A program made the translations under genes and the position numbers. DNA of 55,909 bases, taken from positions 1 to 55,909 of IMG/VR virus record IMGVR_UViG_3300030106_002604; one strand, 5' to 3'. Below, piece after piece: positions 8,184 through 27,473 of this stretch. This DNA is from a virus. Taxonomy: Duplodnaviria > Caudoviricetes. Under the pieces are notes generated by a model. That model made no database searches. It was not told the origin of the DNA and worked only from the letters and a program-made list of their open reading frames with translations. Each line of letters opens with the position of its first letter. Positions within the stretch are counted from its first letter, which is position 1.

Positions 8184-8354
8184 TTAGTGTATGATTGTGT
8201 TATCAAAATCGTGAGTCATAAATTCGATATCCTTTAGCCTAAAGCCTTGTTCATCTATCCACTTTTCAACGTCCTCTATTTGAGCGCCTACTAGGTGTTC
8301 GGGCAGGTTATACTGATGCACCTTACCACTTGCGAAGTCTAAGATTGTAATCAT
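8184..8354 (-). CDS. Small hypothetical protein (56 aa, MITILDFASGK...)
   Basis: ATG 8354; the longer start in the ORF track falls inside the ribozyme. Confidence 0.7.
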   Translation of the reverse strand: MITILDFASGKVHQYNLPEHLVGAQIEDVEKWIDEQGFRLKDIEFMTHDFDNTIIH

Positions 8355-8374
8355 AATGTGTAAATTTTTAAATT

Positions 8375-8504
8375 GACATAGACTACCCTCTGCAAACACC
8401 TTCAGATTTTTTTACACGTTAGGCAAACAGGGATACAAGTGATATGTTTGCGTGTGCTTGTCTGCGTTGGGTAGTTTCGACTAATCGAGTCTCATCAGTA
8501 TGCC
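8375..8504 (-). ncRNA. Type I hammerhead ribozyme with extended stem III
   Basis: GGCAUA-CUGAUGA-GAC(UCGAUUA)GUC-GAAA-CUACCC-[~80 nt]-GGGUAG-UC-UAUGUC; all core residues and three stems present; predicted cut between 8381 and 8380. Confidence 0.9.
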
Positions 8505-8929
8505 TATAATAATATTTCTTTCTGGTTTTTACAGTCATAAATTGCGATTTCGCCGCGTTTTTTCGCTATGTCCGTAGCTACGTCTAGGTTATACAGGTGT
8601 TGCACAAGGTCGAAGTATATCTGTCCTTCGTGTACCCATGTGCCTACACCCATGCCTGCCTTGTACAAGTTGCTTGTGTAATCGCCAAGTTTTAGTTGAT
8701 ACTTATCCCATAGCTTTTTGAACGCTTTGAAGTGTGTGCTCACATCAGGGTATGCGCTCCCGTCAACCTCTGCGTACATAGTGGTTGGTTCAGTTAGACC
8801 ACCTACGATGTAACCTTCGGTTGGGTTGGTTTTGCCGTCTGCAAGGCTTGTATACCCACCGTCTATGAGCGTATTGGCGTACGGTATACGCTTCTCGTAT
8901 TCTTTCAGTAAGTTCATAGAATAATTCAT
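8504..8929 (-). CDS. Early protein (141 aa), function unknown
   Basis: GTW...YFD...A...EIAIYD pattern; its stop codon abuts the ribozyme. Confidence 0.8.
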   Translation of the reverse strand: MNYSMNLLKEYEKRIPYANTLIDGGYTSLADGKTNPTEGYIVGGLTEPTTMYAEVDGSAYPDVSTHFKAFKKLWDKYQLKLGDYTSNLYKAGMGVGTWVHEGQIYFDLVQHLYNLDVATDIAKKRGEIAIYDCKNQKEILL

Positions 8930-8952
8930 GATGTATAAAATTTTGGTTTGTA

Positions 8953-14299: not shown

Positions 14300-14771
14300 C
14301 GGTATATTATTCGATATAACAGATGGACCACGAAGATTTCTATGCTACACGCTGGAAGACGAAAGTCGCAAGGAAAAGGTTTACGGAGAAACTTGTATAC
14401 CTGAAGGAGAGTATAATATCGGCTTTAGAACTGTGGGTGGATATCACGCCAAGTACAGTAAGAGATTTGCTGACATACACAAAGGTATGCTTCATGTCTT
14501 GGATGTGCCAAACTTTGAATATATTCTTCTTCACTGTGGTAATACTGATGAGGACACTGCGGGATGTTTACTGCTGGGTGACACGCAAGAAAACAACAAC
14601 ACAAAAAAAGACGGTTTTATAGGAAAGAGTACTACTGCCTACAAGCGTGTATACCCGCCTATAGCAAAAGCATTAGAAGACGGAGAGGAGGTAACTATCG
14701 TATATAGAGATTTTGCAGAAAGCCTTATATTGCAACCGTCGGATATAACTGAATTTTTAGGAGAATGTTAG
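14253..14771 (+). CDS. DUF5675-type L,D-peptidase-like lysis protein
   Basis: CYTLED...TCIPEGEY...ILLHCGNTDEDTAGCLLLG (His/Cys motif). Confidence 0.8.
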   Translation: MKLEVIRFNKGKDSTNGILFDITDGPRRFLCYTLEDESRKEKVYGETCIPEGEYNIGFRTVGGYHAKYSKRFADIHKGMLHVLDVPNFEYILLHCGNTDEDTAGCLLLGDTQENNNTKKDGFIGKSTTAYKRVYPPIAKALEDGEEVTIVYRDFAESLILQPSDITEFLGEC

Positions 14772-26830: not shown

Positions 26831-27165
26831 AGAATTTAATCTACATATGTTTGTTCGCATTTATATCTCTTGGTATGAATATACCAGATTTGGGGGTATG
26901 TGTTGTTGAGTTTAACGCAAGCTTTAACTCTGCTAATAGTGTAGATTGGATTGACAAGTTGACCGACTGTGAAGGCAAGAGAGTAGACATAGCTGCTGAG
27001 CCAGCACTACAAAAAGAACATAAGATTGTTGTAGTTCCAACAGTCATTGTATTTAATGATGGGGAGGAGGTAGAAAGATTCCAAGCTAATATTATGATGG
27101 AACTTGAAGCTACACAAGATGAAGTTCAAGAAGCTGTCGATGAAATTATAATGAGTGATTTCTGA
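26827..27165 (+). CDS. Exported thioredoxin-fold protein lacking CxxC
   Basis: Hydrophobic leader; VVEFNASFN replaces FxAxWCxxC; VPT..VFNDGEEVERF. Confidence 0.75.
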   Translation: MKNLIYICLFAFISLGMNIPDLGVCVVEFNASFNSANSVDWIDKLTDCEGKRVDIAAEPALQKEHKIVVVPTVIVFNDGEEVERFQANIMMELEATQDEVQEAVDEIIMSDF

Positions 27166-27473
27166 TGGCAAAGAAGAAAGATCCAAGATTAGCAAGAGCA
27201 GGAGTAAGCGGCTACAACAGAGCTAAGCGTACTCCTAATCATCCTACTAAGTCTCATGTTGTTGTGGCTAAAGAGGGAGATAAAATTAAACTAATAAGGT
27301 TTGGACAACAGGGTAAAAAAGTGGGTCAGCTAAAAGGAACTGCAGGAAAAGCAAAGTCTGGTGAGTCTGCAAGAATGAAAGCTAAACGCAAATCATTTAA
27401 AGCAAGGCATCGTAAAAATATAGCAAGAGGTAAAATGTCTGCTGCATGGTGGGCAAATAAAGTAAAGTGGTAA
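27165..27473 (+). CDS. Small basic phage protein (DUF6321-like)
   Basis: KLIRFGQQG...RKSFKARH...SAAWWANKVKW. Confidence 0.75.
   Translation: MAKKKDPRLARAGVSGYNRAKRTPNHPTKSHVVVAKEGDKIKLIRFGQQGKKVGQLKGTAGKAKSGESARMKAKRKSFKARHRKNIARGKMSAAWWANKVKW

Follow-up and report, generated by a model that had tools for sequence, protein, structure and literature searches.

Type I hammerhead ribozymes of phages and prophages (RF00163, Hammerhead_1) share a catalytic core, three stems and an open stem I, and they lie between short genes; where arrays of them flank single phage genes, this has been read as operon processing, in which long transcripts are cut to gene-length mRNAs (Perreault et al. 2011, PMC3088659, accessible text). 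The functions of bacterial ribozymes are described as still undefined in the available part of a review (PMC6765202). The same source describes the mammalian Clec2 hammerhead in a 3' UTR (Martick et al. 2008), which is split by several hundred nucleotides, and discusses this long insertion between the two halves as a possible control handle. In engineered type I aptazymes, an aptamer is carried on stem III in a bacterial 5' UTR just before the start codon, and cleavage alters access to the initiation region (PMC7445771, accessible text). Candidates with very long insertions were kept in PMC10085705 only if the insertion formed a hairpin; thus, long hairpin insertions are an accepted possibility, though, as far as the accessible part of that paper goes, an unstudied feature. 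Self-cleavage in 5' UTRs of RNA viruses was described in 2026 to enable eukaryotic translation initiation (PMC13725137, accessible text), which is an analogy to the present case and not evidence for it. Our literature search, mostly of openly accessible papers, found no hammerhead reported in phages of Flavobacteria and no bacterial or phage hammerhead with a conserved, structured domain in loop III; similar cases may exist in the alignments of PMC3088659 and PMC10085705.

The DNA analysed here, referred to as the window, is IMG/VR record IMGVR_UViG_3300030106_002604 at its full length of 55,909 nucleotides, a 55.9-kb virus with an estimated completeness of 90%. PHROGs calls in the window include a primase/helicase, an exonuclease, a terminase, a portal protein and a ribonucleotide reductase. 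Among 99 records close to the terminase, 68 belong to Flavobacterium phages, the nearest group, and 15 to Cellulophaga phages, with identities below 60%. Start codons in the window are not preceded by a Shine-Dalgarno motif, and the G+C content is 37.7%. Bacteroidota mostly dispense with the Shine-Dalgarno motif, and both features therefore fit a host from this phylum. The replicon is best explained as a marine podophage of about 56 to 62 kb with Flavobacteriia-type hosts, in which the ribozyme described below is part of an early minus-strand operon. The genes flanking the ribozyme are both on the minus strand. Their products and those of their neighbours belong to no Pfam family and, in PHROGs, only to families without known function, and a blastn search of 2 kb around the ribozyme against the phage GenBank collection gave no match. 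Elsewhere in the window, a 102-aa open reading frame (27165-27473, plus strand; no Pfam family) is 98% identical in the insert-bearing record G006 and absent from G001 to G003; among five records only the window and G006 have it, a sample too small for a link to the insert.

The original prediction had placed a hammerhead with a structured insert in stem III on the minus strand at 8504..8375. Indeed, this element of 130 nt reads as a complete type I hammerhead, and we have little doubt that it represents a real ribozyme. Its parts and neighbours are as follows.

8504..8929, minus strand: upstream 141-aa gene (PHROG 17808, no assigned function; stop codon TAG 8506-8504; homologues in eight related loci)
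8499..8504, minus strand: stem I 5' strand GGCAUA; G8504 doubles as the last base of the stop codon of the 141-aa gene
8492..8498, minus strand: core CUGAUGA (C3 to A9), invariant in relatives except at N7 (CUGACGA in L021)
8479..8491, minus strand: stem II hairpin GACU-CGAUU-AGUC, 4 bp, loop CGAUU; U-A changed to C-G in L008
8475..8478, minus strand: core GAAA (G12 A13 A14 A15.1), invariant in 13 of 13 sequences
8469..8474, minus strand: stem III 5' strand CUACCC, pairing with GGGUAG 8388-8383; with A8475-U8382 the stem has 7 bp
8389..8468, minus strand: loop-III insert of 80 nt with the three helices P-a, P-b and P-c
8465-8459 with 8398-8392, minus strand: P-a, GCAGACA/UGUUUGC, two compensatory pairs
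8457-8454 (or 8455-8452) with 8417-8414, minus strand: P-b, ACAC(G)/(C)GUGU, ambiguous register
8451-8445 with 8429-8423, minus strand: P-c, GCAAACA/UGUUUGC, closing a 15-nt loop (8444-8430), one compensatory pair
8422-8418, minus strand: 5-nt bulge in the insert fold
8413-8399, minus strand: A-rich strand of 15 nt in the insert fold
8383..8388, minus strand: stem III 3' strand GGGUAG, pairing with CUACCC 8474-8469
8381..8382, minus strand: U16.1 and C17; predicted scissile bond 8381/8380, its position taken from the hammerhead consensus
8375..8380, minus strand: stem I 3' strand UAUGUC, pairing with GGCAUA 8504-8499
8355..8374, minus strand: A/U-rich leader without Shine-Dalgarno motif, a degenerate version of the leader AAACCAAAA(A)UUUUAUACAUC that precedes other genes of the phage group
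8184..8354, minus strand: downstream 56-aa gene (MITILDF...) with its real start ATG at 8354; L005 has the same gene directly after the 141-aa gene

We judged the core by the criteria of Perreault et al. (PMC3088659) as given in the accessible text. C3 U4 G5 A6 N7 G8 A9 is present as CUGAUGA at 8498-8492, G12 A13 A14 lies in GAAA at 8478-8475, the A15.1-U16.1 pair is A8475-U8382, and H17 is C8381. The pairs next to the core, U8380-A8499 (N1.1-N2.1) and G8491-C8479 (N10.1-N11.1), are intact, and the stems have 6, 4 and 7 bp. The topology is that of type I: stem I is open, stem II is closed by its loop and stem III by the insert. Thus, the intact CUGAUGA/GAAA/GUC core that had been claimed was found, with the GUC ending at C8381, as was the start of stem I within the stop codon of the 141-aa gene. 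The predicted cut at 8381/8380 leaves a leader of 26 nt before the next ATG (8354-8352), exactly the distance given beforehand, and the three pairings named for the insert exist, at 8465-8459/8398-8392, about 8455-8452/8417-8414 and 8451-8445/8429-8423.

A descriptor consisting of CUGANGA, stem II of at least 3 bp, GAAA, stem III of at least 4 bp with a loop of up to about 400 nt, UH and stem I of at least 5 bp gave a single match on both strands of the window, namely 8504..8375. Any match was found in 3 of 300 dinucleotide-preserving shuffles of the window, and an equally strong one, as judged by stem lengths, in none. CUGAUGA followed by GAAA occurs five times in the window, with 1.45 expected. 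As a side observation, CTGATGA on its own occurs 19 times against 8.7 expected, a number reached in 0 of 100 shuffles; only one of the occurrences belongs to a ribozyme.

Folding thermodynamics gave no support beyond shuffled sequences for either the element or the insert. The whole element has a minimum free energy of -29.8 kcal/mol (z of -0.90; 44 of 200 shuffles were as good), and the insert alone has a z of +0.61, with 148 of 200 shuffles as good. Nor did curated models recognize the element: the search with hammerhead models that had been proposed as a check returned no hammerhead at the Rfam gathering score in the window, and at E<=10 within 8250-8650 (401 nt) it returned neither a hammerhead nor an aptamer but just a chance match to a snoRNA. 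The long loop III is likely the reason why Rfam misses the copy in the window; RF00163 has a short loop III, whereas loop III here is a conserved 80-nt domain of three helices. Relatives with a minimal loop III also stay below the gathering scores (29.2 versus 56.3 bits and 17.1 to 29.3 versus 34 bits), and the whole subfamily scores under the Rfam gathering thresholds. The best Rfam model for the minimal relatives is RAGATH-1 (RF03152; L004 29.2 bits, L036 36.4 bits, gathering score 56.3), which has a similar stem II, GAAAC and stem III. Unlike a full RAGATH-1 match, however, L004 aligns only to positions 26-77 of the 77 in the model, with the 5' part absent, and the copy in the window does not match the model at all.

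Relatives gave good support for the ribozyme scaffold. A search with the 141-aa protein led to eight related IMG/VR loci, and in the fetched flanks of three of them (L004, L007 and L008) there was a hammerhead with the same stem I. The copy in L008 bears an insert, that in L007 is of the window type and interrupted by the end of the contig, and that in L004 is minimal (stem III CUACC-UAAA-GGUAG) and sits at a different intergenic place; it shares stem I with the window and stem II with L008. A search of IMG/VR for the core pattern gave six loci, of which L012 (= L008) and L015 (= L007) are insert bearing and L013 (= L004), L010, L011 and L014 are minimal. From seven copies we built the covariance model R1, in which the insert was modelled as an insertion. 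R1 scored 67 bits on the window, which was among the training members, and 60.6 and 67.1 bits on the unseen copies L021 and L023; four more unseen copies, in G009, scored 51 to 69 bits. In the related phage loci, R1 gave 14 matches with 13 distinct sequences. In the alignment of these 13, 204 of 204 cells were paired while slid registers reached at most 40%, a large margin even though an alignment fitted to R1 favours structure. Both sides changed in 10 of the 16 pairs. Across the wider family, covariation was seen in five of six pairs of stem I and two of four pairs of stem II. The stem I pair 16-147 changes from G-C to A-U in L021 and L023. The core of the original prediction, a hammerhead with a structured stem III insert, is thus borne out by covariation of the scaffold in 13 distinct sequences and, within the insert, by compensatory changes in P-a and P-c among four variants.

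The hammerhead at 8504..8375 is, judged from these sequence comparisons, most likely active. An element may, of course, retain the consensus and yet fail to cleave in vivo, for example, for want of a contact between stem I and loop II. Stem I is just 6 bp long, and when loop II and the flanks were inspected in 13 copies, no conserved stem I/loop II complementarity, pseudoknot or loop-loop partner came to light; in addition, stem II of a related copy, in Flavobacterium phage elemoF_6-3D, contains two mispairs. Since the core is invariant, compensatory changes preserve all three stems across 13 distinct copies and the element keeps its place between stop codon and leader, we regard an inactive relic as very unlikely. 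A candidate pseudoknot between GAUU of loop II and AAUC of the A-rich strand fits the window, L021 and L023 but fails in L008, which has UGAAU, and it was therefore dropped.

R1 found one ribozyme in the whole record G003 and none in G001, G002, G004 and G005, where matches reached at most 14 bits. Since most relatives are without it, the ribozyme is dispensable. No match was obtained in G011, G012 and 151 sampled genomes of the phylum of G011. A weak R1 match in the window itself (14539-14574, 11.2 bits) lies in coding sequence and is repeated by relatives at about 14 bits. Several other copies were seen. In the first ~4.4 kb of the phage fragment G009 (L036, L039), hammerheads and Pistol ribozymes alternate with short genes in a dense array, with six hammerheads of the window's subfamily in ~3 kb and three Pistol ribozymes scoring 65.9, 57.9 and 42.4 bits against an Rfam gathering score of 34.5. 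The cultured Flavobacterium phage vB_FspP_elemoA_7-9A contains an unannotated hammerhead of the subfamily (NC_055852.1, 17290-17347, minus strand; 48.6 bits; L061, L063) between gp67 and gp69, beneath the 35-aa plus-strand CDS gp68, which is probably spurious.

In L005, the 141-aa and MITILDF genes are adjacent, with the leader alone between them and its first bases overlapping the stop codon, and thus this locus represents an empty site; the window has exactly the 130-nt element between the 141-aa stop codon and the leader. In L024, an identical element follows the gene that precedes it in the window, but the gene after it is another one, and L008, L021 and L023 have yet other neighbouring genes. 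The presence or absence and the changing neighbours argue for a dispensable cassette that is exchanged at gene boundaries. The longest upstream frame stops -3 to +7 nt from stem I in 8 of 10 ribozymes examined (the window and L024 share this gene), the exceptions being L008 (-36) and L023 (+21), and the distance from the cut to the next AUG is 26 to 29 nt across copies. Because the stop codon overlaps stem I, a ribosome that terminates there would be expected to cover the 5' half of the ribozyme, and translation of the upstream gene could in this way affect its folding. The family resembles the phage hammerheads of PMC3088659 (accessible text), which also lie between short genes and, as in the relative G009, form arrays flanking single genes; in keeping with the role proposed there, operon processing is the probable function of the hammerhead.

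Other elements of this region deserve mention. The leader occurs as AAACCAAAA(A)TTTTATACATC directly before the ATG of several early genes (8927-8950 and 8355-8374 on the minus strand of the window; also in L002, L005, L006, L008 and L009). The hammerheads abut this shared leader, and the G009 copies are followed by a similar (A/T)AACCC string. Directly after the stop codon of a 148-aa open reading frame, the window has a tRNA-like element (9060-9012, minus strand), in which GCCAAG/CUUGGC forms an acceptor-like stem and GGGG-UUCGAAU-CCCC a T-arm; there is also a small hairpin but no anticodon arm. ARAGORN and Rfam made no call at 9060-9012. The element is kept in L002, L006, L008 and L009, with a compensatory change from A-U to U-A in L008, and has a z of -1.95; it may be a processing signal or the remnant of an attachment site. 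Between it and the 141-aa gene there is a long, nearly perfect hairpin (9006-8954, minus strand; z of -6.2), whose relatives give weak sub-threshold matches to Plastid-psbA-2 (36 versus 55.8 bits) that we put down to a mere resemblance between hairpins. The minimal hammerhead of G003/L004 precedes the 141-aa gene and there takes the place that the hairpin and the tRNA-like element have in the window and in other relatives.

The insert itself is known in four variants (window = L024; L008 = L012 = L025; L021; L023) with identities of 81 to 91%, which precede at least three different downstream genes. They were aligned in five rows representing four different elements, the window and L024 being the same element. 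In the alignment of the insert-bearing copies, 98.9% of 175 cells were paired, and slid controls reached at most 43%. Changes on both sides were seen in one pair of stem I, one of stem II, two of P-a and one of P-c. Among 500 shuffles, none reached the paired fraction or the covariation score, and 21 reached the number of covarying pairs. P-a differs in four of seven pairs between two groups of variants with pairing kept, and P-c has an exchange from C-G to U-A; no compensatory change was found in P-b across the four variants. RNAalifold independently gave the same insert helices, with P-b in the register GCAC/GUGU. Because there are four variants only, the window and L024 being the same element, the covariation in the insert amounts to few events. 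Conservation is uneven: invariant columns number 51 of 62 in the insert centre (P-b, P-c, loops and A-rich strand), 43 of 50 in the ribozyme, 9 of 20 in P-a and the junctions and 7 of 25 in the flanks, and of the 40 unpaired columns of the insert centre, 31 are invariant. The flanks are no neutral yardstick, however, since the neighbouring genes differ between copies, and the evidence for selection on the insert centre is suggestive only.

The distribution of the insert is narrow. A metagenome scan for any loop III of 62 to 92 nt on the ribozyme scaffold of the window returned five loci, of which L021, L023, L024 and L025 are true, all with the same insert family; the fifth, L022, was a false match. 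In IMG/VR, an exact 20-nt string of the insert matched only L012, and the central insert pattern matched L012 and the unrelated L026, so that no insert was seen outside the ribozyme family of the window. All seven matches of the central pattern in GTDB genomes were unrelated, and no second copy of the insert was found by blastn-short in the window or in any fetched locus. L004, which combines stem I of the window and stem II of L008 with no insert, indicates that the insert is an addition and not a requirement for catalysis.

Such rarity, with a single lineage found in IMG/VR, the metagenome scan and GTDB genomes, would also be expected if the insert were a functionless passenger, that is, DNA tolerated in a loop III that accepts any hairpin and spread with the cassette by recombination. 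Minimal ribozymes with the same stems exist, the folding energy of the insert is unexceptional, and the variants are closely related, so that their conservation may reflect young age. A neutral passenger would, however, hardly be expected to keep P-a paired while four of its seven pairs differ, to exchange C-G for U-A in P-c and to have a centre whose conservation equals that of the catalytic core even as the flanks and adjacent genes turn over. We therefore consider neutrality unlikely and selection on the insert as an RNA domain somewhat the better-favoured assumption.

A promoter or operator lodged in the ribozyme has to be weighed as well. The -7 box of Bacteroidota has the consensus TAnnTTTG. 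The plus strand has TATGTTTG at 8443-8450, which fits this consensus; similar strings precede several genes of the window, and a sigma-70-type scan around 8336-8379 gave seven sites against 2.4 expected from shuffles. If the box were the conserved feature, the RNA pairings would be incidental. Instead, L008 and L023 have an A in place of the G of the box, together with a compensating change in the base that pairs with it, which is what an RNA structure predicts. Moreover, there is no TTTG 19 to 21 bp upstream of the box at 8443-8450; the TTTG strings of the sense strand are without TA and 23 nt apart, the second being TTCG in L021 and L023; and the sigma-70-like matches are downstream of the insert. 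The compensated change and the location of the sigma-70-like sites outside the insert led us to reject the promoter reading, and a DNA-level function of any kind appears exceedingly improbable.

A third possibility is that the insert senses a ligand, be it a small molecule, an RNA or a protein of phage or host, and thereby toggles cleavage. The switch would then determine how much of the early mRNA is joined and how much separated, or how well the downstream gene is translated. The unpaired centre of the insert is kept (31 of 40 columns) while P-a covaries, which is typical of binding domains; the location, stem III of a type I ribozyme shortly before a start codon, is that used in engineered aptazymes (PMC7445771, accessible text); and regulated cleavage of phage hammerheads is raised by Perreault et al. 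(PMC3088659, accessible text). A specific switch had in fact been proposed, in which the duplicated UGUUUGC allows alternative pairings. This did not hold: in L021 and L023 the 3' strand of P-a is UAUUCGC, which cannot pair with GCAAACA and pairs instead with GCGAGUA or GGGAAUA. The alternative pairing is thus not conserved, and no other conserved competing fold was seen. Stem III has 7 bp, four of them G-C, and a 3x3 internal loop lies between it and the insert; it should therefore form regardless of the state of the insert, which argues against allostery by simple helix stability. Structures with all three stems are predicted in similar proportions with and without the insert (0.11 to 0.60 and 0.20 to 0.59, respectively), no Rfam aptamer was found at E<=10 within 8250-8650, and with four close variants only, the conservation pattern is compatible with a binding domain but not specific for it. 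Unlike the element in the window, the engineered aptazymes (PMC7445771, accessible text) are artificial and have short, tuned communication stems and a known ligand, whereas stem III is long and stable here. The Clec2 hammerhead (PMC6765202, accessible part) is likewise different, with its insertion of several hundred nucleotides in a eukaryotic 3' UTR compared to a compact, conserved fold of 80 nt in a phage operon. Conditional cleavage through the insert, and with it control of the joined-to-separated mRNA ratio or of downstream translation, thus seems rather unlikely.

Taken together, we favour, with fair confidence, constitutive processing of an early operon by a hammerhead whose accessory RNA domain, itself under selection, stays at the 3' end of the upstream product; that the RNA cleaves, that it does so constitutively and what the insert does are all deduced from sequence. 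During synthesis of the polycistronic early RNA, stems I, II and III would form and the RNA would cut itself after C8381, a position predicted by established hammerhead chemistry at C17. The 141-aa gene and the genes downstream of it would thereby come to lie on separate mRNAs. Of the two fragments, the upstream one would end in a 2',3'-cyclic phosphate, with stem II, stem III and the insert forming its 3' portion, and the downstream one would begin with a 5'-OH followed by the unstructured A/U leader of 26 nt. The insert would be a separately evolved three-helix rod with conserved loops that was gained by, or lost from, an otherwise identical minimal ribozyme, and catalysis should proceed without it. 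Known hammerhead structures show coaxial stacking of stems II and III. The extension of stem III should therefore point away from the interface of stems I and II and should not hinder catalysis, which is consistent with the similar predicted shares of competent structures with and without the insert. As an accessory module on the upstream fragment, the insert could be a 3'-terminal structure that protects the end or a platform for the binding of protein or RNA; that it acts mainly in one of these ways rather than as a switch is a tentative proposal.

What is known here is the kind of ribozyme, a hammerhead; what is new is its conserved, rare accessory domain in loop III. Curated models miss hammerheads with long structured loops, which are therefore probably under-counted. 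Closely related phages show three states, with the ribozyme absent (L005), minimal (L004) or carrying the 80-nt domain (window, L008, L021, L023), and these natural states offer a ready-made comparison for the roles of cleavage and of the added domain. The cultured phage vB_FspP_elemoA_7-9A, with a ribozyme of the same subfamily, provides a laboratory system. It is quite unlikely that cleavage depends on the loop-III domain as a natural sensor of a metabolite or of a protein from phage or host; if it did, the element would be a natural counterpart of the engineered stem III aptazymes and the first phage hammerhead shown to be regulated, timing the separation of early mRNAs in infection.
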